Source: Macrostomum lignano
Taxonomy: Eukaryota
NCBI GenBank assembly: GCA_002269645.1
Contig: NIVC01001598.1
Coordinates: 115,692-179,691 of the forward strand
DNA length: 64,000 nt
Direction: 5' to 3'
The notes beneath the pieces are model-generated. The model did not search any database. It had not been told where the DNA came from and saw nothing but the letters and a program-made list of their open reading frames with translations. The translations under genes and the position numbers were made by a program. Shown piece after piece: positions 1-63,234 of this stretch (positions are counted from its first letter, which is position 1; every line of letters starts with the position of its first letter).

Positions 1-583
1 AGAAAGCGACAGCATCAATCGAAACTAGTAGCAGCCAACGAATCAAAGAAGCGGTCGAAAGCCCCAAGAAGGATACGAAAGTAAAAACTGCCGAAAAATC
101 TACTTGCAGAACGTCGAGTGTGTGAACCGAGTGTTTTGCGCGAAATGGAGCCGCATGCCTGACTTGGACTGGGCGAGCGCACGGACATTTCGCAGACCAA
201 GAGCTCTTATCAATTTGCGAATAGGGAAATGTACAATCAACATTTTTCAGCGTTCTTTGTCTGCAATTGTATTCGGTTGTCGCTCCATCAACCAAGTTTT
301 GCGTCTTTTTCCTCAATGTAAACCAATTTCTGTTGTTGTTACCACTAGTACTTACCGCGCTGAAGTAGACAGATGGCCAAACTTTTTCCAAATTGCATAC
401 TCCGGGTCCCGCTGGGTGAAGTGGGAGTGTGAAGTTTTCAATGGAATAGTAATAAAGTCTCCATTTCGCAATGCTAAATGTTTATTATGCGGAAAGAATG
501 GCCGCCTTGTTTTCCTTGGAATACGAAACTTTAAAGAGCTCTGTCAAATGTACGATCATGTGACTAGCGTTTTGCATGTCTAA
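1..583 (+). CDS. TBP-like (TATA-binding protein fold) protein, 5' partial, apparent -1 frameshift at the A5 run 94-98
   Basis: Manual alignment to both TBP core repeats: YLQNVECVNRVFC vs QLQNIVSTVNLGC; RALINLRIGKCTINIF..IVFGCRSINQ vs FAAVIMRIREPRTTALIF..VCTGAKSEEQ; WECEVFNGIVIK..NGRLVFLGIRNFKELCQMYDHVTSVL vs [38 protein letters not shown]. There is no in-frame ATG before LQN. The frame starting at base 3 is open to 98 and joins this frame if one A is added. Confidence 0.75.
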
Positions 584-723
584 TCCATGTAGCTGTTGCG
601 TAACTTTACTGCTTTACCACTGTACCGAATTTGTATGTACGTACAAGCTGCTATGAAATTGTCTATAAATATATTGTGCATAAATTGCAGTGCACTGCAA
701 CCAACATCTTTTTGCTAAACAAA

Positions 724-1080
724 ATGACAAACGGAATCTCCAGACTATGTTCTTGTCGCGGCGAGCTCGCAGAGCTCGCCAAAGCCCGTCCCACTCTTCG
801 GCGGGCCATTATTCGAGGTGCAGGCAAGGAACTGATTCATTGTCTCTGTGAATTGAGTCACAACGTGCTCCGGGGAAATATCGATCTTTCTCCGAAACAG
901 TATCTACGATTAAAGCGATACAGAAGATCGTTGCGTGAATTGGCAGACACAAAATTGTCTATAAATAGGAAGAAGAATATGCTTCTCTCGAATCCTCAAG
1001 TTGGTGGTTTTCTACCCATCCTTGCATCCGTTGCTGCACCGCTAATATCAAGCCTGTTTGGCGGACTACTTGGTCGCTAA
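724..1080 (+). CDS. Basic Maverick core protein with adenovirus pX/Mu-like C-terminus (118 aa)
   Basis: K/R-rich body ending QVGG|FLPILASVAAPLISSLFGGLLGR, resembling adenovirus pX (MRGG|ILPLLIPLIAAAIG). ATG 724 is preferred over the GTG at 631 because a TATA-like motif sits at 663. Confidence 0.7.
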   Translation: MTNGISRLCSCRGELAELAKARPTLRRAIIRGAGKELIHCLCELSHNVLRGNIDLSPKQYLRLKRYRRSLRELADTKLSINRKKNMLLSNPQVGGFLPILASVAAPLISSLFGGLLGR

Positions 1081-1081
1081 A

Positions 1082-1732
1082 ATGAATAAATACGTTGTTG
1101 TACCAGAAGAAGAATTTAATAGACTAAGTCAAGGCGCACCCCGAGAAATTGCATCCAAAACAGAATATGAAAAACTCATTGAATACAACACTCAACTCCA
1201 AAATAAACTAAGTCAGATCAAGCAAAAGAAGAGTAATCGTTTTCCTGAACGACAACAACGTGTTTGGGACATGCTGACAGAAAGATACCCAAATTTGGAG
1301 TACAACAAGTCGTGGGAAATTGTATTTGATGGAAAAACCTGGCCAGGAAGCAATATTTTCGATCTATTGAAGGAGATTACATCGAATGAAAGGCGCGACC
1401 GCCCAAGCCCAAAATATAGTACCGCTTTTTGGGCCCTGACCGAAGAGGTAGATATTGCAAAAGCTCTACAAGGACGACGCCAACAAGAAGAAGTCAGTGT
1501 GAAAAAAGAAGTCGGCACGGATCCGGATCGAGACGATTTTTTAGTCGAGCAAGCAATTGGAACTAATGATTTCTACAACGACTTCCACAAAGACCAAGCC
1601 AGTGGCCTGAATGAAATTAAAAAATATGAAGATCGTGGCAGCGATGCCTACAGGCATGCTTCATACCAACTTCGCGAACCAAAGAGGCGGCAGAAACCAG
1701 CAGTAAAATACGAGACGTTAAAAAAACTATAA
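1082..1732 (+). CDS. Conserved Maverick hypothetical protein
   Basis: ATG directly follows the upstream stop (TAAAATG). MNKYVVVPEEEF start and WEIVFDGKTWPGSNIFDLL motif resemble an ORF commonly adjacent to Maverick integrases; function unknown. Confidence 0.65.
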   Translation: MNKYVVVPEEEFNRLSQGAPREIASKTEYEKLIEYNTQLQNKLSQIKQKKSNRFPERQQRVWDMLTERYPNLEYNKSWEIVFDGKTWPGSNIFDLLKEITSNERRDRPSPKYSTAFWALTEEVDIAKALQGRRQQEEVSVKKEVGTDPDRDDFLVEQAIGTNDFYNDFHKDQASGLNEIKKYEDRGSDAYRHASYQLREPKRRQKPAVKYETLKKL

Positions 1733-1869
1733 ATAGAAATCATTTTCATGATTTATAATCTGTTTTTGGATCATGGGTGCCGCAGCTGTAACTTCAAAGC
1801 TTTGCTCAGACAAACCGTCTGTGGAGTTCAAGTGTAATTACTCATGCTGTGCATCGAATCTAGTTGCGA

Positions 1870-2937
1870 ATGAGGGTGAAAACCGCTCTTCGGAGAGTGT
1901 ACGAACAGGGGGACGCCGCTTTTACAAATGCTGCCCGTGTATATCAGGAGGCCAAACGGCTGGTCCCCTCCCTGACGAGACGCCAAACAGACGAATGGCT
2001 GAAGACCCAATCGAGCTACACCCGGCACAAGAGGGTTAAAAGAAAATTCCAAACCGGAAAAGTAATGTCAGGAGGCTTCATGGAAACTGTGCAAGCGGAT
2101 TTGATGGACATGTCACGATACGAACAATGGAATGATGGTCATCGATATATTCTAGTTGCAATTGACGTGCTTAGTAAATTGGCTTTTTGTCAGTCAATAA
2201 AATTGAAAAGCGACACTCCAAAGGCTTTTGAAAGCATGATCAAAGACTTCCCCATTAAGCCTTTATATCTACACGTTGATCGAGGTACCGAGTTTTATAA
2301 CAATCGCATGCAGAACTTACTGAAAGCCCATAATATCAAAATGTACAGTACAAACTCTGTATACAAGGCAAATATGGCTGAAAGGCTGATTAGGACTCTC
2401 CGAAAACGTTTAGCTCGCTACTTTGAGCATAAAAACACGTGGCGTTGGATCGACTATTTGCCAATATTGGTTAAAAGTTACAACAACACAGTACACTCTA
2501 CTATTGATATGAAACCTTCGAGTGTCGGTCTGCACAATCAAAAAGAATTGTGGGAAAAGCTCTACAAGGATCCTGAATATGATGAACCAGTTTACCAAAA
2601 AGGGGACTTTGTCAGAATTTCAAAATCTCGTCGAGCCTTTGACAAGGAAGCATACGATATGTACAGCGAAGAAGTTTACGTTGTGTCTCAAGTATGCCCG
2701 GGACCGCCTCATTTTTATCGCATTTCCGACCTATCTGGAGAACAAATCGAGGGTCGATTCTACTATAATGAACTTTCAAAGACGGTTCGACCGGACCGCT
2801 TTGTTATAGACAAAATTCTGCGTCGCAATGTCATCATCAATGGTGTCGCTCATCATTTCGTTAGTTGGCGCGGCTATCCCGAGTCGTTCAATGCATTTGT
2901 ACCAGTTGAGGAAGTTATAAATATAAGACAAGGATGA
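1870..2937 (+). CDS. Retroviral-type (rve) DDE integrase with C-terminal chromodomain
   Basis: QADLMDM (D), YILVAIDVLSK, HVDRGTEF (D), AERLIRTL (E), YNNTVHSTIDMKP; chromodomain FVIDKIL...FVSWRGYPESFNAFVP. Open and intact. Confidence 0.95.
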   Translation: MRVKTALRRVYEQGDAAFTNAARVYQEAKRLVPSLTRRQTDEWLKTQSSYTRHKRVKRKFQTGKVMSGGFMETVQADLMDMSRYEQWNDGHRYILVAIDVLSKLAFCQSIKLKSDTPKAFESMIKDFPIKPLYLHVDRGTEFYNNRMQNLLKAHNIKMYSTNSVYKANMAERLIRTLRKRLARYFEHKNTWRWIDYLPILVKSYNNTVHSTIDMKPSSVGLHNQKELWEKLYKDPEYDEPVYQKGDFVRISKSRRAFDKEAYDMYSEEVYVVSQVCPGPPHFYRISDLSGEQIEGRFYYNELSKTVRPDRFVIDKILRRNVIINGVAHHFVSWRGYPESFNAFVPVEEVINIRQG

Positions 2938-2971: not shown

Positions 2972-4126
2972 ATGCATCTATTCCTACCTAGCAATGCGTG
3001 CGTTGAGCACTATCCTGAGAATAATTCGGCACATTATAGCATTAATTTGCCCGACACCCTCCACTTTCCGAATCATGAAGTCTGCATCGAACGGATCTAC
3101 TTTTGTAAAGAATTCAAAACCGTCCCCGATAATCGAATGGTTGATGTCCTGACCAACGCTCCCGAGGATGAAGTGATTGACATTGAGGTGAGAGAAAAAC
3201 CCGCCTCCACGTATAAACAGTTTGCGTCGGTTTCTCTCGCCGCGGGGCTATCAACAGCCAACGAAGTGGTTGATGCAATCATCGCCGATCTAAAATATGA
3301 GCAAGACGATAATGCGATGATTTGCATTGAGCGTTCACAGGAAGGCCAAATTTCAATTGTGAACAAATCATGGTATGGTGCGAACATTAGGCTGTCCAGT
3401 AATGTGCGTAGCATGTTTAAAAAGGTTGATGACGCTGGAAATAAATCAAATATCGAAGTAACGACTTTTTTATTAAACCCAAGAAATTCGTTAGTATTCG
3501 CTATAGAATTGGAGTCCTCCTCCTCCATAGAGAGTCCGATGACTCTAACGTTTGAAAAGAGTGTCTGGCCTTCTAGAACGTCACTGCGGATTGCTAAAGG
3601 ATTCTACCGCACGCCTGACGAGCTCTTAAATTATGTTAATGGAGCGCTTTGGAGCGTCGTTTCAAAGCTCCCAATAAGTCCAGCGACGAGAGTGGATGCA
3701 TTCCACTACAACCCTTTTCTGAACCGGTGTGAGTACAAACCCATTGAAAACATTTTATTCGACATTGGAGAGCTTGCTGCCATTCTCGGCTTTCGCGAAG
3801 ATGTTTTCAATGAAACTCCAAAGACCGCTAAACGACCAATCGATTTAACAAATGGTGTACAAACTATGTACATCTATTCAAATATTGTCGACTCTGCCAT
3901 TGTTGGAGACGTCAAAGTCCCCCTGCTTGGGGCAATTCCTTTGAATGAAAAGGTATACGGCGAACGAGAGTACTACGAGTTTGTCAATCCATCCTACTTA
4001 CCGTTGGTGAAACACCCATTCAAAACCATTGAGGTGCAAATCTGTGACGATATGGGCAAGTTAATGGATCGGATTCTTCGAGGCAAAACTGTTTTATCGA
4101 TCAACATTCGTGAAATTAAGCTATAA
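2972..4126 (+). CDS. Minor capsid protein (penton, single jelly-roll), 384 aa
   Basis: N-terminal LFLPSNACVEHYPENNSAHYSINLP and C-terminal MYIYSNIVDSAIVGDVKVPLL...YLPLVKHPFKTIEVQICDDMG are typical of Polinton minor capsid proteins. Confidence 0.88.
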   Translation: MHLFLPSNACVEHYPENNSAHYSINLPDTLHFPNHEVCIERIYFCKEFKTVPDNRMVDVLTNAPEDEVIDIEVREKPASTYKQFASVSLAAGLSTANEVVDAIIADLKYEQDDNAMICIERSQEGQISIVNKSWYGANIRLSSNVRSMFKKVDDAGNKSNIEVTTFLLNPRNSLVFAIELESSSSIESPMTLTFEKSVWPSRTSLRIAKGFYRTPDELLNYVNGALWSVVSKLPISPATRVDAFHYNPFLNRCEYKPIENILFDIGELAAILGFREDVFNETPKTAKRPIDLTNGVQTMYIYSNIVDSAIVGDVKVPLLGAIPLNEKVYGEREYYEFVNPSYLPLVKHPFKTIEVQICDDMGKLMDRILRGKTVLSINIREIKL

Positions 4127-4170
4127 ATAAAGAAGTTTTCACGAATAAAAGGTAGCAACTGATCGACAAT

Positions 4171-4512
4171 ATGCCTTCAATCTTGATCGGAGGAGCTTTA
4201 CCGGTATTTTCCGGTGCACAGCGCGGCAACGGCCTGTTTGGCAGCATTGCCCGATTTGCCCTGCCAATTTTAAAGAGTTTTGGCAAAAATATTCTTCGCC
4301 ACGGAACACGAGCCCTAGCTACAACAGTTAGCGACACACTCGATCAAGGCGGGAACTTGAAAGAAGCGGCATTGCGTAACTCTGTCCAGGCAGCTAAAGA
4401 TGCTTTCAAGGACACAGTCGCACAACGAGGTAGCGGCAGACAAAGACGAAGAAAGATGACTAACAAAAAACGAGAAAAAGACTGCAGCATTCTGATATTT
4501 TCGACTCTATAA
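4171..4512 (+). CDS. Small protease-processed core/membrane-active protein (113 aa)
   Basis: QRGNG followed by the amphipathic LFGSIARFALPILKSFGKNILRHG; a second QRGSG is followed by a basic tail RQRRRKMTNKKREK. Lies between penton and MCP. Confidence 0.7.
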   Translation: MPSILIGGALPVFSGAQRGNGLFGSIARFALPILKSFGKNILRHGTRALATTVSDTLDQGGNLKEAALRNSVQAAKDAFKDTVAQRGSGRQRRRKMTNKKREKDCSILIFSTL

Positions 4513-4581
4513 ATAAAAAAACCCGTGCCAATAACTGATCTGTCTATTAGAGCACCACACTAAGCCGCTGTTGAAAGAAAA

Positions 4582-5863
4582 ATGACTGAGTGCCTGTGTA
4601 CAAAGTCGGAATTCGAGCTTTTGCTCCTCGCGCACACCAAATTGCTGCAATTAGCGCCACCACTGAAGAAGTTCACCCTGTTGCCAGTGTTGAAAATGCC
4701 AGCGTGGTCGAATTTAGGATTGTTGGTGGTGAGACGTTTATCGATCTTAACGACATTGACCTCGAGATTAAGGCCCGCGTTAAGCAGTCTAATGGTACAA
4801 ATCTTGCTGCTGATTCGAATGTTGCGCCGGTCAATTACGTCCTTGAAAGCATGTTTAAAAACGTCACGTTGACAATCAACGGGACACACGTAGAGTCGAG
4901 CAATAACAACCACGCTTACAAGGCCTATATTCGCACGTGTTTGAATTACGGACACGATTCAAAAACCAATCAACTGAGAATGATGGGCTACGCAAAGGAC
5001 GCTGGAGGTCAAATGGCTGTGGTTGGAAATCCTGGCTTTGTAGCCCGCAAGGCGATGGCGGCAAACTCACGCACCTTTCACCTTTATGGACCTCTTAGTT
5101 TAGACTTTTTTGTTACCAACGACCGAATGCTACTGCCATACACTGATATGGTAATTACGCTGACCATGCACAATTCCGGCTTCGTTCTGGAAAACCACGC
5201 GGACGGGGTTGATGCGCGGCTAGTACTCGAGAGTGCCAAACTACATGTGCGCCGCGTCAAGGCAAACCCCCAATTGGCATTGGAGATTGAAGAACAACTA
5301 GGCAAACAGAATGCAATCTATCCGATTGAGCGACTTGTTGTGCACAATACTTCAGTGGCTGGCGGTGTTCGGGACATGTCAATCAATAATATATTTCCTG
5401 AACAAAAGCCTAAACTAGTGGTTGTTGGCATGGTGAACAGCGGCGCATACAACGGTGTGGCTACACATAACCCGTTTAATTTTGAACCGTTTGGGCAGAC
5501 AGTGTCGCTCTGTATAAGGACGGAGTCAGTCTGTGTGGACAACCGTTTACTCCTCGATTCGGTGTTCATAACTATGCTCGCGAGTATGCCATGCTACTAA
5601 AAAGCCTAGGAAAGATGAATCGGGACCTGGATATTGACGTATCATATTCCGACTATGGAGCTGGCTACTGCTTCTTCGCCTGGAATCTCATGCCCGACAT
5701 GGAGCTGGGCGGGCATAGCATGCCTCGCGAGCGAGGGAATCTGACGCTACAAATAAAGTTTTCTGCTGCCTTGGCCGCAGGAATCAACGTGTTGGTGTTT
5801 GGCTACTTTGACAATACTGTGCAAATCACTCGCGGTCGTCAGGTTATTCTAGACTACGTGTAG
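4582..5863 (+). CDS. Major capsid protein (double jelly-roll), ~427 aa when two -1 frameshifts are corrected
   Basis: MTECLCTKSEFEL(F) start, FIDLNDIDLEIK, APVNYVLESMFKNV, NPFNFEPF, YSDYGAGYCFFAWNLMPD, GNLTLQIKF, YFDNTVQITRGRQVILDYV. Adding one T at 4619-4622 and one G at 5493-5495 joins track ORFs 4582, 4590 and 5591 into one frame. Confidence 0.92.
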
Positions 5864-5913
5864 AAACAAACATCTCTTTTTTATTCTCGAATAACGACCA
5901 TATTCATGCCGAT

Positions 5914-6338
5914 ATGAATAGTCTAGATATATTAGAACGTCTAATACTACCTGTCCCTGTTCGAGTAACACCAGTTGACAGGATTCCGCAGCCTGTTTAT
6001 CCTGCTGCAATCTACCAGGCACTCACTGGGCTTTAATTTGTCTTCATGCCGATGAGAGCGTGACATTTTTTGACCCCTTGTGTATCGATCCTGTGCCAGA
6101 TTTATTAAAGTTGTGGATCGCAAAGTATGTCCCTGTGGAGGTGGCCATGAACCGGCATCCTGTACAGCATCCGCTGAGTGTGACCTGCGGGGCTCATGTA
6201 ATATTTGTGGCTGAAAAACACTTTCTGGAGGGTCTGTCAATTGAAAAAATATTGCGCGACTGTTATAGCACAAATCTTTACGAGAACGACTTGATGGTGC
6301 AGAATCACTGTCTACAAATAAAGCAGCATCATCCATAA
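5914..6338 (+). CDS. Adenain-like cysteine protease, frameshifted near 6010-6013
   Basis: Second frame has PGTHW (His), FFDP (Asp) and QHPLSVTCGAH (Gln/Cys). First frame reads MNSLDIL...TPVDRIPQPVYPAA. The frames differ by -1 and the usual hhNTD strand before PGxHW is missing. Confidence 0.85.
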
Positions 6339-6340
6339 AT

Positions 6341-6991
6341 ATGATTGGGCGGCCTATCAAAATGTATCAAACAATAGACCCCGATTCTTTAAAATTTGCC
6401 CCCAAAACGTCGGCAATTTTTGCTGGGGTGGCTCAAAGCGGCAAGACCACACTTGTGAAAAACCTATTGAGACAAGAATTTTTTCAAGATCCGAAGCCGA
6501 TTCGCGTTGACTGGTTTGGCCACTATCCGGATCCTGAACTGTTTGAATTGCCGTACCCTGTAAATTTTCGTTCGTGTACATTTGATCCTGAACAATATGT
6601 CCCTGAACCAAATATTCTGCTTGTCGTCGACGACCAAATGCATGTCATGGAAAAGAGTGGCGCTTTTACAACTTTTTTCACGCGCAAAGTCTCCCACGTG
6701 GGGTTCCGACTTTGGTATCTTGTGCAAAACCTGTTTGCAAAGGGTAAGGAGCACCGAACTCAGTCGCTCAATTCTAACTACCTTGTTTTATTCCGCAATG
6801 TACGGGATGCCAGCACAGTGTCTCATATTGCAAGGCAGCTGGTCCCCACTAATCCAAAAAGTTTTGTCAAAACGTATGAGGATGCTACTCGCGACCCCTA
6901 CTCATACTTGATTGTAAACTGTTTGCAAAATGCTCCTGCTCGCTATTATTCAAACGTTTTGGGTCGTCACCCAATTGTGTATGCTAAATAA
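6341..6991 (+). CDS. A32/FtsK-like DNA packaging ATPase
   Basis: Walker A GVAQSGKTT, Walker B ILLVVDD, then LVQNLF and RTQSLNSNYLVLFRNVRD. Intact; the start could be 6341 or 6362. Confidence 0.93.
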   Translation: MIGRPIKMYQTIDPDSLKFAPKTSAIFAGVAQSGKTTLVKNLLRQEFFQDPKPIRVDWFGHYPDPELFELPYPVNFRSCTFDPEQYVPEPNILLVVDDQMHVMEKSGAFTTFFTRKVSHVGFRLWYLVQNLFAKGKEHRTQSLNSNYLVLFRNVRDASTVSHIARQLVPTNPKSFVKTYEDATRDPYSYLIVNCLQNAPARYYSNVLGRHPIVYAK

Positions 6992-7224
6992 ATATACGTA
7001 TCAAAGCTCGGCTGGCTTTTTGTGTAAATATATATACGCCTTTTGAAAACTTATTTGGGAGAGGGGTTGGTGGATGACGTAATTGTCTCGGAGTGTCGAC
7101 GAGGGCTGAATTCTAGAGAATGAAGTATGGAAGGAGTGGATATAACAGTGTGGATAGCGGCGATTTACAGCGGCTGACTCATCATGCCTCCGCGCGCGGG
7201 GGGCGCCAATTTTGTAGGGGTCAC

Positions 7225-7455
7225 AGACAATTCTGTGCGTACATCAATTTTGGGTGTATATATGGACAAGTAATAATATGGACAGTTATGGGGTGGGCGG
7301 ACGCTACAATTCTGCGCGTACACCAATTTTGGGATGGACAGTAAATATGGACAAGTAATAATATGGACAGTTATGGGGTGAGTGGGCGCTCTAATTCTGC
7401 CAATTTTTGGTATATGGACAGTTAATATGGACAGTTAATTCTGCGTACACCAATG
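7225..7455. repeat. Maverick subterminal repeats (probably part of the terminal inverted repeat)
   Basis: ATGGACA seven times (7262, 7278, 7334, 7347, 7363, 7414, 7427), and an AATTCTG..CGTACAYCAAT block three times (~7229, ~7308, ~7437), in non-coding DNA after the last ORF. Confidence 0.7.
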
Positions 7456-8040
7456 CTGCATTGTGTGGGGATGGGGGCGCGCGCGTTTCTATACGTACAA
7501 CAACGGTGAAGCGCTAATTATGCGTACTATATTGTACTAGTCGTCGCTTCTGTACGATACAGTGTACACTGATTACATGTATAGATTTTACATGAGAGTA
7601 TAAATGTCTCACATAATGACTCTGGACCAATTAGAATCGGTCTAATGTATTTAGATAGGCGTTGAATTTGCATTGGCTCTGACACCCACCTCACCTCCAA
7701 AATCGACACTTATCTGCACGATACGTAGTGACACTGTCACTCTTACACAATTACACACACGCTGTCAGTGACACTTTAGTAAGTCACAAACCCTAGATTC
7801 ACAGATACAAACACAATCTTCACTAATCTTTATAGCTTTCAGATAAATAGATTCACAGGTCCTTAATTTACAGATTTTTATGACCAATTTACCATGTTCA
7901 AGCTGGTCAACAGCACCATAAGCCGTTTGGCTGCCTTCAGAGATACATTACCGATAGCATAAAATTGTACTTACTGAGTGACGTCATTGCATGCGACCCA
8001 ATTTCGACATGCGCTTGTGCTTCATAGCACCAGAGAGACC

Positions 8041-9005: not shown

Positions 9006-9424
<419 letters not shown>

Positions 9425-57022: not shown

Positions 57023-60000
57023 ATGCAGAAGTGGGTGCACTACAATTCAACTGACTTGACGGTGAACAGTCAAGAGTTTCGTCACTCAGATAGTTTGCAG
57101 CCTGCGATGCAGCTTCGCAGACAGCCAACCGACTTCGCTGATGCTCTTGACTCCTCTGGAGGAGAGGATGGCAGGCCAGACTTGACTTGGCCGCGGGCGG
57201 CCAGCCAGACGCAGCCGCACTGGCTGATGAAGCCCAAGACTGAGCGGCAGGAAGAGCAGCTTGATGTGCGGGCGCAATCGCTGGAAGCATTGAGTCCAGA
57301 TGAGTCGCCACCGCCTTCTCCGTGCTGGTCCCGAGGCAGCAGCGGCGACAGTTCCAACAGCACCTGGTACCTGGATGACGATTCGGCTTCCATGCAGGAT
57401 GCAGTGTCTCCAGCGACTGAAGAGGAAGGCGAAGAAGTGGATTCAGAATTTCTGTTTGTGCCGCAAGGCAATGACAGCAACCAACAGGAGCTGAAGAGCA
57501 TTCAGGAAATTCTGCGGGAGGGCGGCAGCAGCTCATTGTACTTCTCGTCAAGCCTGCCCAGCAACGGTCGCTGCCTGTATCCGATTCTGGAGGAGAGCTC
57601 GGACGAGATATCCGACGCTACCGCCACCGACGATGAGGTTGACAACGACGCAGTGTTCAAACCAGACACCGAGAGTACAATTGCAGATCTTGGTGGATTT
57701 CAACTCCCTCATCAGATTCAAGCTTCAGGTGAGAAGCTCTTGCCGATGATTTTTTAAGCTTCTGGCTTCTTCTGTCTCTTATGCACTTTACTTGGGGCCG
57801 TACCTTTAAACAGTACCTGATAATTATGTATGCTTGTCTACTTTTGTCTACCCTTTTCTAGGAATGCGTTTGATTTGCGAAATTTCATTTTAAATTGCAT
57901 TATATTCTTCATATAGCTATGGCATTGTCCCAGACATAGGTACAGATATCGAAGAATGTTGATACAATCGAGTCGGGAAATTATTAATTACCAGTACATA
58001 GGCAGTGGCTTGGCCAACGGTTTAAAAAAATGGTTGGTTTGTGCCCCCGATCTCCATTCAATCGGCGAAGAAGTTCAACCCACCCCACTCCTCTTTACCA
58101 TGGGAAACAGTTCCCTCCTACAGGAGGGTGAGAAAACGGGAAAGAAAATGCAGAGCGCGTTTTACTCGCATGGATAAGAGAGGGAGAGACGGTTTAACTG
58201 GGACGCCCTGCATAGTGTCGAAGGGCTGCAGGTAGCAGGGTTGCTGCAGAATGTCACAGCACACCCGCGTGTGTATATCAGCGTTAATCAATAGCTATAC
58301 TGCTTTTAAAATTGGAATGGTCCAGACAAAAGTTTTAGATTCCGCAGAATTCAAAGCTTTCCTTTCAAGTTAACGCCATTTTGTTTTACTAAATACATTT
58401 TAACTTGTCTTCCCGCTCTGGTCGGTAAAGATAGTGTCTCGTAGCAAATTTTATGTATTTAACGCATTTCAGAAAAAGCCGTATCAGAAGACGAAACAAA
58501 TAACAAGGTGCGTATTTGTGAATGTGATTGCAAAATTTAGTTCCACATTTAACTCGTAAAAATTATTTCTATGTGAAACATTCCATTGTTCTATAGGATC
58601 AACCAAGCGACCCCAGATCGTCAAGTTCGACTGCTAATTCAAGTTCAGATTCAACTTCAACTTCAACGTCAACTTATTCATCTGAGTCTTCTGAGGCATC
58701 TGTAGATCTTGAGCAGCAAGCTCCGACTCAGCAGAAGCCAGTGGAGCCTGAGAAGCCTCAACAGCTCCGAACAGAGGAAGACATGCGCCGCTGGAGTCTG
58801 AGGCTGCAGCCACAACAGCTTGACGCTATCGCGGAGGCTGAGAGCACCTCATCATCCTCATCTTCGGCATCCGATACTGACGAAGCGCCAGACGTGGATG
58901 GAAGTCCTTCTTGTCAAGATGAAGCAATGAAAGGAACAGTCGCGTTGAAGAATAATCGGGATGCGAGTGTTGGTGAGTTGCTACATGCAACACTGAAATC
59001 ATTTCCATTCCTTTTACGAGCGTATACATGCATCTTCATCCCTAATTGTCATAAAATTCCAGCATCCGCATCTGTGTCAGCTCAGGTAAGAGTGATTGCT
59101 TCATCCAAGGCTGAGGTCCGCGACACCAACGATCAACCAACTGGGGACGAGGCGAGTGCCGTCACAGAGGCAACAGGCGCCACTGTCAATATGGCGGTCG
59201 CCAGAGCGGCAGCTCGAGCGGCCAGCATTGCCACATCAACTGTGATGAGAAACGGTGGTGGGGTCAGTCGCTACCGAATTCTGATCTCCACCCAGTGCGA
59301 TGTTGAGCCCCAGCCGCAACTACCCCTTGCTAGAGGTGACATCAATGACGGTTGGTGCCAAGCTATAGAAAATTCGCAGGGTGAAGGCCACTCGTCTAAC
59401 CAGAGTGCATATGGAGAGCACATACTCAAGCTTCTTCCAGTCTTGGTCCAAAACTCGCTGACCGCTCCTAATCCTCAAACGCATACAGTAGTGACGGAGG
59501 AGCAGCTGCTTGTCACATCCTCGGCAGTTGACATCCCAAAGCCTGAGATGTCTGTCGAGAGCGCCTACATAGAATCTTCAGGCGATGAAGAATCAGCGTC
59601 AGAGACTGACACTACTGAGAGCGAAAATTTTCAAACATCGGAAAGCGACTCTGGTGCGGTTCAACCAACGAAAATTCGAGCGCAAACTACCACTTATCGC
59701 TCAGTTCTGCAGCAACAGCTTAGTGAGGCCGAGTCAGCGTCAAACCTCAACCATTTCAGCAGTTCTAATCAACTGCAGTCGGACCAAGAGAGGATGCGAC
59801 GAGCTAAGGATGTGTTCCTTAGCGGTCGCGACTCACTCTGGGAGCAATTGTTGGACAGAGGGACATACCAAGCGAGCTTATCTACGTGTACCAGACAAGA
59901 GCCCGTCGAAAGACCGAAATCCAGAAGGAACAGCGACGGTAACCAAGGATATGACGTGTCTACTTTTGCACATTCTTTAAAAGAAATACTGGATGATAAC

Positions 60001-63000
60001 TTAGTTCGAAATTCGCAGCAGCAGAAACGCAGACTGCAAGGTTGTCGATCTACAGATCTTGACAAGCTCGATGACTTAGACTGCGAGCAAGCATCACACC
60101 CTCATACCATCGTGAGTCTTCTTGAAGCCCAACCAGGCCAATTTAATTCCGTTTCACTCTTCGATCTTTCTAGATCAGCAATGGATAATATTGGCTTGGT
60201 AAGTAGTTTTAGTCCATCACTAATGGAAACAAATATTGATACGGGTGAAGAGACTTATCATCGTGTTGTCAAGGAGACGGATGTGGATACACTGCTGCAG
60301 CCTACAATGATTCAGTCTCCAGGAGCCATAAAAAGACGTTCTCGGAGTCTGCTAAACCTTACTGGCATAGTAGATAGCCAAGACCGCGAGTCGGCAGCTG
60401 AGGCTGGCGTAGGTAACGCAATTAGACGGTCAAATTCCAGGCGCAAAAGCCAGAAAAAGAAGAAAGAAAGAAAGAGCTTCATTGAGCGACTAGAAGAACG
60501 GGCAACAACCGATACAGAAAAAGAAATTTGCCGATCTTTGTCTCGACTCCGAATTCCTCCATGGATGGACAAAGTGCCACTCAATGGATGCAGTAGTGCT
60601 ACACCGGAAACTAGTAGTAGATACTCGAGGCAAAAAGATGGGACTTCTCATGCCAGCATGAGCACTAATGACCTTGCTATCACAGCAGCTTTGAAACCGA
60701 TTCAGACATCGGTCGAGACGGAGCCAACGGAAACCATCATAGACTCTCCAGTCGAAGTGGAAGAGAGCTACTTGAGACCGATTATTCTTCCGACGAGCGT
60801 GAGTTTGCCCTGTCTGCTTGCGGTGCGACCGGAACAACTGAACAAAGACTTAACTCCTGGCTCTCAGAATCAGCCAGTTATCAGCAAGCCTGAAACGAAG
60901 GGGATAGCCAAGACACGCAGTGAGCTATTTCGCAAAAGCCAGGAAGTCAGGCGACAACGTCTAGTCGAAATTCAATCCCGGATGCACCGACCATCGTTGG
61001 AGCCGGTGACTCTGACCCCTAAAGATTTTGTGCCTAAAGTATCAGACACATACCCCAGAACAGAAGCGAGAAGCCAGCAGGAGCAGCAATCATCAGCTCG
61101 TGCCAATGCACTGGCTATTGCTGCAGCGTCCATTGCTGCATCGACACAAGGAGCTTCTCTAAGCTCTGGAACGCGCGCTCCACCACCATTACCGCCAAGA
61201 ATGAAACTTGAGCCAGGCGCAACTGCTCGTGATAGCGCTTCTATTGTTAGGACATCAACTGGAGACTCGTGTGATAAGACCCCTCACCAACCTCTAGGTA
61301 ACTTATTTGAATCTCCTCCTCCACCACCTTCACGATTGTCCGGTCGTGCAGAGGCAATCGCAATTGCCTCAGCCGCGATAGCTGCAACGACAACGACGCA
61401 TACAAACGAAACAAACCACTTTCCACCAGCACAACCGCCACCACCGCCAAGAAATCCGGTGGCACAAAGAATGTCAGACAGGGATAGGGCATTGGCAGTC
61501 GCTTCTGCTGCTATAAAGTCGATGGTGGGGCAACCATCCAGCGAAGCAGGCGACGTGCCCCTGCCTCCTCCTAGACAAACATCAGCACAGATTCTTTCTC
61601 CAAACTGGCAGGAAAACAATTCCACCGTTTTTGAAGGGGCGTCAAGATCGCGCATGAAACAATCCGATTATGGCAAAGCAGAAGTTTTAAATGGAACGCC
61701 ACACACGAGCAGAGACCGACAGCAAGCTAAATCATCCTCACCTCAGGTTCAGTTGAATCGCCAGGCACAGAAGCAAGACGATTTGCAGCATGCTCTGGCC
61801 GTGCAGGGTTGTAATCAAGCATCACCAAATATGCACGTTCAAAGTGAACCCGTGTCAAGCAGAACCGATCAGGTCAACGAGCTTCCACATTCAGTGCCAC
61901 CGCAGATGGGCAACCGAAATGAGAAATTACCATCCATGATCGAGCAGAATGGCAATGACGGCAGTCAAGCAGAGTTTAATGGGCCAGTCAATAACTTTGA
62001 CAGTAACTCCAGCAACTCTTCTCATTCATTTTACTTTGAGGCTCAAAACAGCCCGTCAGCAAAGTCTTCGCCGATTCAAGAATTAAGAATTAACAGCCCA
62101 GTGCCTTCAGACTCTTCACGCGTGAGTCATCCATCCGGTAGCGACAGAGCTGTCGAGGAGAGCACGGTGGTGCAAACTTCAGTCGTGTATAGACGCATTG
62201 TTCGGCAAACGGTTGAGTTTTCTCGAGACAAGTCTGAGCACGAGAATGTAAACTCAGGCAGCGCAGAAGCGGCACCAAATGCTTTGGCTGGCGTTATTTA
62301 TTGCCAGACCGAACCGGACATTGGTAATGAAGAAGAGCAGCGTGAGATTCTGGCATTGGTAGACAGCCAGCTGGAACAGTTCGGAGAATCGCTCGCTGAA
62401 CTTGAGAAGGGCGGCTTCAATCGCGTCGGCAAGTACGGGGAGATGATTTCAGCCCTGGTGGCAGCCAGAGATGACAGCGCCCTCATCAACGGCGCTTCTT
62501 TGTCCAGCCTGTTTGGAGATAACTCAGTGTCTCCTGGAGCAGCCTGCCGTCGTCTCCTCGTTGACTGGCTCTTGCGGCGTCCGGAAACGCATCGTCGATT
62601 GGCTCGACTGGCTCAAGCTTCTCATCGATGTCTGGGCCGCGGCTGCGTGCTCCTGCTATTCAACGTCGGCAGCGATTCCAGGGTCAGCCATCTTCAAAAA
62701 CCGCCAATCTACACGCCAGTTGAAGAGCTGCTCGAGTCTGCTTCAATCGGAGAATCCGTGGATCTTAGGGAAGCTTGCGCCGCCTACAATCCTGAAGACG
62801 AATTTGTTGTGTCTTTAGCCATCGGCGCGGCTCGTCTCTGCGCCCGTCTGGCGGCTGAGCCGCAGCGAGCGCAAACTTCGCAACCGCCGCCTAGAGAGCG
62901 CAGGCAGATGTTTGTTGCCAGCCTGCGGCGCTCACTTCGAGACCGAGGCGTCAGCCTGCGTCATCACTACCCGGAGCTGCACGACCTGCTAGACGCCTAT

Positions 63001-63234
63001 GCCGACACCGGCGAGGCTTTTGCGCCGGTGACAATTCGACCAGTGGACGCCGTCAGCGGTCAATCGTTTGCCTGCAGCATCGCTGTGCCCTCAGCCGAGG
63101 ACGGAGACTGGTGGGCCAGCGAGCACCTGTTGGGAGACCATCCGCAAGTGTCTGCCTGTCCGCAGTTTGACAGTCGCTCGGATGTGAAAACGGAAAATTG
63201 TGGCAATAAGAAGGTTATCTCCACAGAACTGTGA
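57023..63234 (+). CDS. AJM1: Large low-complexity protein with AJM1 (apical junction molecule 1)-like C-terminal domain, ~1792 aa
   Basis: Exons 57023-57728, 58473-58507, 58597-63234 with consistent phases; an upstream exon is possible (acceptor at 57015). C-terminal LGRGCVLLLF..YNPEDEFVV..RRSLRDRGVSLRHHYPE..FAPVTIRPVDAVSGQSFACSI resembles the AJM1 family domain as I recall it. Confidence 0.7.

Follow-up and report, generated by a model that had tools for sequence, protein, structure and literature searches.

A mobile element related to Mavericks, at the left of the window (the whole 64,000-nucleotide stretch of Macrostomum lignano contig NIVC01001598.1 analysed here), carries an open reading frame that is almost certainly homologous to the TATA-binding protein (TBP). 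Three other Maverick lineages of the same genome also encode TBPs, and each lineage has its own TATA-like word before its structural genes, suggesting that the TBPs likely switch on the late genes of their own elements. In what follows, W is the polymerase-less Maverick lineage of the window element, and T1, T2 and T3 are the other lineages.

A TBP homologue under selection

The frame had been described from inspection of the sequence as a viral TBP homologue, and profile comparison places the resemblance beyond chance. Against a profile of four Pfam-positive Maverick TBPs (T1, T2), from which the rows of the W family were left out, the window ORF scores 16.7 bits, whereas shuffled sequences reach at most 6.7 bits (n = 2000, 1547 reported), and the next best of the 336 window ORFs 4.1 bits. 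A comparison with hhalign gives 93% and E = 3.4e-7. The Pfam search suggested in the preliminary description fails for the window protein itself, which has no match in Pfam (PF00352 included), PHROGs or, by phmmer, the PDB, but succeeds for a relative: P0013, 62% identical to it, scores 24.6 bits against PF00352, above the cut-off of 22.9. A sister copy, 77% identical, scores 22.6 bits (E = 9.5e-5). With a profile of the family only, 16 PDB matches are obtained up to E = 10, of which 15 are TBP and none is significant; the best is an unrelated protein (E = 0.0099). Identity to the host TBP is 18%, and 15–20% to the cellular TBP family.

The window TBP has 91 matches in its own genome, falling into two subfamilies (about 97% and 76% identical). 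Between these, dN/dS is 0.064 over 159 codons, compared with 0.075 for the integrase and 0.042 for the ATPase of the same pair, values that are rough because synonymous sites are near saturation. The W TBP gene is thus under purifying selection. No frame correction of the protein is needed, contrary to what had been supposed, as the frame is already open and the gene intact; nor is the gene cut by the left edge of the window, being complete and 2.5 kb inside the left end of the element. Its position between Maverick terminal inverted repeats (TIRs) shows that it is neither a host gene nor outside the element. Related loci were looked for in viral_contigs and metagenome_contigs (context of P0001, P0002, P0013 and P0010–P0012), and none was found there.

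Predicted fold and DNA-binding face

The W protein is predicted to form a two-repeat TBP saddle. An alignment-guided model shows both repeats (pLDDT 83.4, pTM 0.73), and Foldseek returns 44 matches to it at E ≤ 1e-3; among the matches listed (39), all are TBP-containing entries, with TM-scores of 0.70–0.81. This model is partly circular, since 12 of the 17 element-type rows from which it was built are Pfam-positive T1/T2-type TBPs. The model built from the family only is poor (pLDDT 52.8) and has no Foldseek match at E ≤ 1e-3, its match to TBP covering 45 residues only (rmsd 1.6, E = 0.47). The structural comparison that had been proposed thus favours a TBP fold with the first model and is not significant with the second.

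Residues were compared through the genome's own TBP and are given in yeast TBP numbering. Strand 1 reads ECVNRVFCAK, its N and V falling in the N69 and V71 columns; the "LQN..C" first quoted for this strand is therefore out of register, its "LQ" being encoded by a conserved TTGCAG. Kept in the W TBP are N69, V71, T112, F116, E186, E188, F190 and G216, with both conserved glycines retained. Substitutions are found at F99, F207, L114, T124 and T215, and at N159 and V161, which both read T. The alignment agrees with the earlier reading that both stirrup glutamates and two of the four intercalating phenylalanines (F116, F190) are retained and that F99 and F207 are lost. The replacements proposed for these two fare differently: F99 reads P or L depending on the alignment, not R, and F207 reads C in one alignment and G in another. 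Among 146 representative TBPs, F99, F116, F190 and F207 are kept in 136, 133, 138 and 141, respectively, and N159 in 134. The TRF2-like protein of the same genome departs at three of the four phenylalanines, so that the W pattern excludes a canonical TBP and not the wider family. The E-C-E-V-F motif is invariant across 16 aligned rows; three of four T3 proteins have D at its first position. At the N159/V161 strand, T-x-T or S/T-x-T/Y is common to all four Maverick lineages. With two of four phenylalanines lost and N159/V161 replaced by T/T, the W TBP would read DNA differently from the host TBP.

The W element

The element spans 10,151 bp (G000:C1598:113270-123420) and is bounded by TIRs and a 6-bp target-site duplication (TSD), GACACT, on both sides (Table 1). 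A TSD is seen in four W copies (C1598, C1070, C807, C110), all with the ends 5'-ACTAC...GTAGT-3'; the ends of T1 (3 copies), T2 (C460) and T3 (C4072) are AGTAGT...ACTACT. The gene order is ORF A, ORF B, TBP, ORF D, ORF E, MGAAA ORF, integrase, and penton-like, core-like, major-capsid-like, protease-like and ATPase-like genes. By eye only, ORF B resembles an OB-fold single-stranded DNA-binding protein. The MGAAA start is conserved in both subfamilies. None of the virion genes of the window copy has a profile match above cut-off, and the protease of a sister copy matches Peptidase_C48 weakly (E = 0.06); by tblastn the virion-module genes are about 30–43% identical to genes of elements bearing a protein-primed polymerase gene (pPolB). 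Reading frames are disrupted in the capsid and protease genes of the window copy but not in its TBP.

Two tblastn queries for pPolB found none in the 10 W places examined, five of them with both TIR arms seen, and genes fill the 10.1–10.6 kb between the W TIRs. The W element is a polymerase-less relative of Mavericks, and the simplest inference is that it replicates with the helper polymerase of another lineage.

The W lineage (C1598, C1070, C807, C110, C4; 10.1–10.6 kb) has many near-identical copies, and between its subfamilies dS is about 2 and dN/dS 0.04–0.11. At its left end (L027:1103-1906), subfamily 2 holds two genes that were not found in the window copy: one with a Fic domain (PF02661, E = 7e-14), the other an unknown ORF of 117 aa. 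A stretch of about 250 bp, covering the end of ORF A and the GGTATATAAG box, is duplicated internally in the subfamily of the window (L021:8408-8664 and 9099-9358). Outside the element, two tandem host genes lie upstream (L021:75-3300 and 3250-4900, minus strand) that by eye resemble GH3 auxin-responsive-type acyl-adenylate ligases (TSGTTG motif), and an open frame of 1545 aa at 58597-63234 (plus strand) has no Pfam match at E ≤ 1.

Table 1. Features of the W element; positions refer to the window unless stated otherwise
Feature	Position	Strand	Remarks
Left TIR arm	G000:C1598:113270-113825		Outside the window
ORF B, 3' end	1..84	+	236 aa in window copy; no family match
TBP-like open frame	32..583	+	183 aa stop to stop; holds the motifs first quoted for the TBP
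Conserved coding part of TBP ORF	104/110-583	+	About 158 aa; two TBP repeats, repeat 1 helix 2 short
TTGCAG	104..109	+	Immediately ahead of strand 1; candidate 3' splice acceptor in frame (YTNCAG), alternatively a near-cognate TTG start
First in-frame ATG of TBP frame	155..157	+	After strand 1; missing from subfamily 2
E-C-E-V-F	425..439	+	Equivalents of stirrup E186/E188 and of F190, by residue alignment
TATAAATA	664..671	+	Upstream of ORF D
ORF D	724..1080	+	118 aa; conserved Maverick gene, no family match
TATAAATA	960..967	+	Within ORF D and ahead of ORF E; subfamily 2 has it at this place too
ORF E	1082..1732	+	216 aa; no family match
TATAAATA	1728..1735	+	Upstream of MGAAA ORF and integrase
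MGAAA ORF	1773..2039	+	88 aa; MGAAAVTS start, myristoylation-like by eye; overlaps integrase 5' end in another frame
rve integrase	1870..2937	+	PF00665, 34.5 bits, over cut-off; C-terminal chromodomain-like part
TATAAATA	2916..2923	+	Inside integrase gene, upstream of minor capsid gene
Minor capsid (penton)-like gene	2972..4126	+	Named by eye and gene order; no family match
TATAAATA	4122..4129	+	Upstream of core-protein-like gene
Small basic core-protein-like gene	4171..4512	+	Named by eye
TATAAATA	4508..4515	+	Upstream of major capsid gene
Major capsid-like gene	4582..5863	+	Three frames in window copy; named by eye, no Pfam match
Adenain-like cysteine protease gene	5913..6338	+	Not one frame in window copy
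P-loop packaging ATPase-like gene	6365..6991	+	Preceded by near match TACAAATA
Right TIR	7150..7729	-	87% over 597 columns
TSD GACACT	7730..7735	+	6 bp; also before left end

TBPs in other Maverick lineages

A survey of the Mavericks of this genome for homologues, as had been suggested, finds TBPs also in T1, T2 and T3, and so in at least four lineages with W. Of 330 candidates in the genome, 150 obtained a score in the PF00352 search. These include the host TBP and a TRF2-like gene, both located elsewhere in the genome; most of the others are members of multi-copy families, and several have a pPolB match no more than 3 kb away. The T1 and T2 TBPs reach 70–83 bits. T3 was reached through an ATPase search, in which six of eight places (four of six families) hold a TBP-like ORF; of four T3 TBPs compared with PF00352, two exceed the cut-off, one falls below it and one has no match. 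T1 and T3 possess pPolB, which in T3 lies near the TBPs. Homologues of ORF E occur near the TBP in W, T1 and T2, and those of ORF D in W and T1 (identified partly by eye).

Trees join W with T3 (SH-aLRT 95, with a long-branch warning), and AU tests reject neither a single Maverick TBP clade (p = 0.83) nor a grouping of W with host TBP/TRF (p = 0.43).

Several other features of these elements were recorded. T1 elements (L056:4873-5532, L060, L062, L072:7409-8263) encode a homologue of the PC4 coactivator (PF02229, 31.8 bits), to which T2 has a weak match (E = 0.02). One T3 TBP frame (L108:6872-8290, minus strand) also holds a deoxynucleoside kinase domain (PF01712, E = 7e-24), in a single copy in which the fusion may be read-through. 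Two T2 copies, L092/L093 (C460) and L095/L096 (C255), of about 10.2–10.7 kb, have no visible pPolB ORF and resemble internal deletions.

Lineage-specific TATA-like words

The word TATAAATA occurs six times in sense and never in antisense orientation in the window part of the W element, the next ATG following at a distance of 45–122 nt. In subfamily 2 there are seven sense and no antisense occurrences, six at the same places and some inside coding sequence. The expectation is 0.1–0.2, and none of 200 shuffles reached the observed count. Of the six sites, three coincide in part with a TAA stop, and AATAAA is found within two. In an unbiased word count the most over-represented words are TATAAATA for W, TTAAGAA for T1 and, in pooled T3-type elements, TATAAGC (24 against 1.5 expected).

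The other lineages carry words of their own. Sense and antisense counts are 8/0 and 7/1 for TTAAGAA in T1, 3–5/0 for TATAAGCA in all four T3 families and 3/0 for TATAAGAA in T2, though the last is not the top 7-mer of T2. There is little crossing over: no sense TATAAATA is found in eight non-W stretches (0–1 TATAAATA in any), and W, T1 and T2 all lack TATAAGCA in sense orientation; T2 has two TTAAGAA. Within T1, a canonical TATA box precedes the PC4 gene and the non-canonical word the structural genes. Family C1390 has TATAAGCA at 2/0, yet no TBP within the 20 kb fetched; none was seen in C1391 either. The matching of word to protein does not prove co-evolution, because the four lineages share one genome and ancestry. 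The canonical TATA consensus is TATAWAWR, which TATAAATA fits, so that the host TBP could read the W word unaided.

The start of the TBP frame

Where does translation of the W TBP begin? The first in-frame ATG is an unlikely start, as it lies downstream of strand 1 and is absent from subfamily 2, in which no Met occurs in the frame until codon 168 of 178. The 17 codons before this ATG are constrained as TBP sequence: in other copies the ORF B frame extends over the first TBP codons, and for the same DNA dN/dS is 0.083 in the TBP frame against 0.43 in the ORF B frame. Immediately before strand 1, all but one of the 26 copies checked carry TTGCAG (11 of 11, then 14 of 15). An in-frame YTNYAG stands at strand 1 in all six W/T3 frames and in neither of two T1/T2 frames, which have their own ATG; all four T3 frames share the place of the acceptor, which in one of them ends in a stop codon (TAG). 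The background rate of YTNYAG is 0.0033 per base; further in-frame sites lie deeper inside four of the six W/T3 frames, and in one T3 frame an ATG lies upstream of the acceptor.

In M. lignano the spliced leader is reported to end in ATG and trans-acceptors to read [T/C]TNCAG (PMC8629364), and wide conservation of the terminal AUG is described for parasitic flatworms (PMC12582326). Exact copies of the leader core number 96 in the genome (G000), and of three loci viewed, one ends in the full ...GCATG and none continues with GT. A leader ending in ATG, joined at position 110, would give the TBP an in-frame Met. We regard splicing at TTGCAG as likely, and the TBP frames of W and its sister lineage T3 may possibly receive the terminal ATG of the leader.

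Initiation at the near-cognate TTG (104-106), or cis-splicing of the acceptor from an upstream viral exon, is plausible but falls short of an even chance. The TTG is conserved in both subfamilies, and a gene caller began P0001 at the same column; T3 frames, however, share the acceptor and no common near-cognate codon, and in one of them the acceptor is a stop codon (TAG). Contigs of four presumed-RNA runs, which are not distinguishable from DNA, cross the acceptor with neither joint nor loose end; they contain no leader junction, as a non-leader start would have it, but no cis joint either. They speak neither for nor against expression, since two of them also cover the TIR. A -1 frameshift from ORF B was dropped, because the TBP is read in the +1 frame and the copies share no conserved slippery heptamer. 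As a separate observation, the 96 places of the leader core often recur at spacings of about 7.8 or 11 kb, which suggests an arrangement in repeat units.

A possible late-gene factor

We consider it fairly probable that the W TBP acts as the late-gene transcription factor of its element, made early, binding TATAAATA and bringing in host RNA polymerase II. The protein would be made from the ORF B transcript, upstream of which lies a promoter-like GGTATATAAG; this transcript would be spliced at TTGCAG, probably to the host leader, whose last bases, ATG, would fall in frame. The TBP would then bind the TATAAATA words that precede the capsid, core and integrase genes, recruit the polymerase via TFIIB and so turn the late genes on. 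The earlier proposal of a viral factor driving late capsid gene expression gains from the lineage-specific words upstream of structural genes, which are consistent with such a role.

In herpesvirus late complexes the TBP-like factor acts with viral partner proteins. By analogy, the W factor might depend on ORF D, ORF E or ORF A for specificity or for recruiting the polymerase, a variant that we hold to be unlikely. Homologues of ORFs E and D accompany the TBP in other lineages, and the short helix 2 of repeat 1 in the model would alter the surfaces for host cofactors; ORFs D and E, however, themselves sit behind the late word.

Quite unlikely is a TBP-fold decoy that would keep the TFIIB stirrup, bind DNA weakly and titrate TFIIB or TBP regulators, dampening host transcription and leaving TATAAATA to the host TBP. 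The pattern of residues can be read in this way, E186 and E188 being kept while seven positions are changed, among them F99, F207 and N159, which most of the representative TBPs conserve; the word of W is moreover a canonical TATA box. Yet N69, V71, T112, F116 and F190 are retained, and the words of T1–T3 are non-canonical and each tied to its own TBP type, for which a decoy would have no need. That the frame is a host TBP retrocopy in decay, or is open by chance, is most improbable: despite the low identity to host TBP and the AU test that tolerates a host grouping, the selection data refute decay, dN/dS being like that of the integrase, and the many genome matches, the location inside TIRs and the T-x-T shared with other Maverick TBPs argue against either.

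Returning to a late-gene factor, a wider scheme is possible but doubtful: the four lineages may constitute orthogonal TBP–promoter pairs, each TBP reading only its own word, with two of them borrowing a start codon from the host leader and W persisting without a DNA polymerase.

Relation to known systems

A TBP in Mavericks is not wholly new. In the legend to Figure 5 of Starrett et al. (2021; PMC8502044), "TBP" is listed for elements with adintovirus-like PolB, and in that part of the paper it is a gene label, with no analysis or link to promoters. The earlier remark that no TBP characterised in a Maverick or Polinton was known thus has to allow for this label, but stands as to characterisation: in the open-access literature, no paper was found that characterises a TBP or a late-promoter word of Mavericks, or starts supplied by the leader. 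As far as Mavericks, Polintons and adintoviruses are described in PMC8502044, W is like them in its TIRs, 6-bp TSD, rve integrase and capsid-, protease- and ATPase-like genes; differently from them, it has no pPolB, and its ends are reversed. With the cellular family (PF00352; TBP, TRF2/TLF, archaeal TBP) the W protein shares the predicted two-repeat saddle and N69/V71/T112/F116/E186/E188/F190, and it differs in its length of about 158 aa, the lack of a conserved ATG, the short repeat 1 helix 2 and its place in a mobile element.

Viral TBP-like late factors include ORF24/UL87/BcRF1 of beta- and gamma-herpesviruses and the TBP-like proteins of poxviruses and asfarviruses. As is proposed for W, these factors have a diverged TBP fold, and their late genes are preceded by a short TATA-like word specific to the virus. 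The viruses concerned are large, and some possess an RNA polymerase of their own or a multi-protein complex. The TBP of W, in contrast, is minimal, and the 10-kb element that encodes it lacks polymerases altogether. On the sequence comparisons made here, what appears new is the presence of four lineages with four words in one genome, an apparently ATG-less TBP start at a conserved candidate acceptor, and a polymerase-less lineage that has retained its TBP.

A self-encoded TBP with a matching word offers a direct test of how Mavericks control their capsid genes and of whether they still make virions, and natural TBP variants with different DNA faces and words would be convenient material for studies of DNA recognition by TBP. 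Missing ATG codons and low identity hide Maverick TBP genes from annotation. The database entries P0007 and P0014, named "TATA-box-binding protein", appear to be element genes and not host paralogues.
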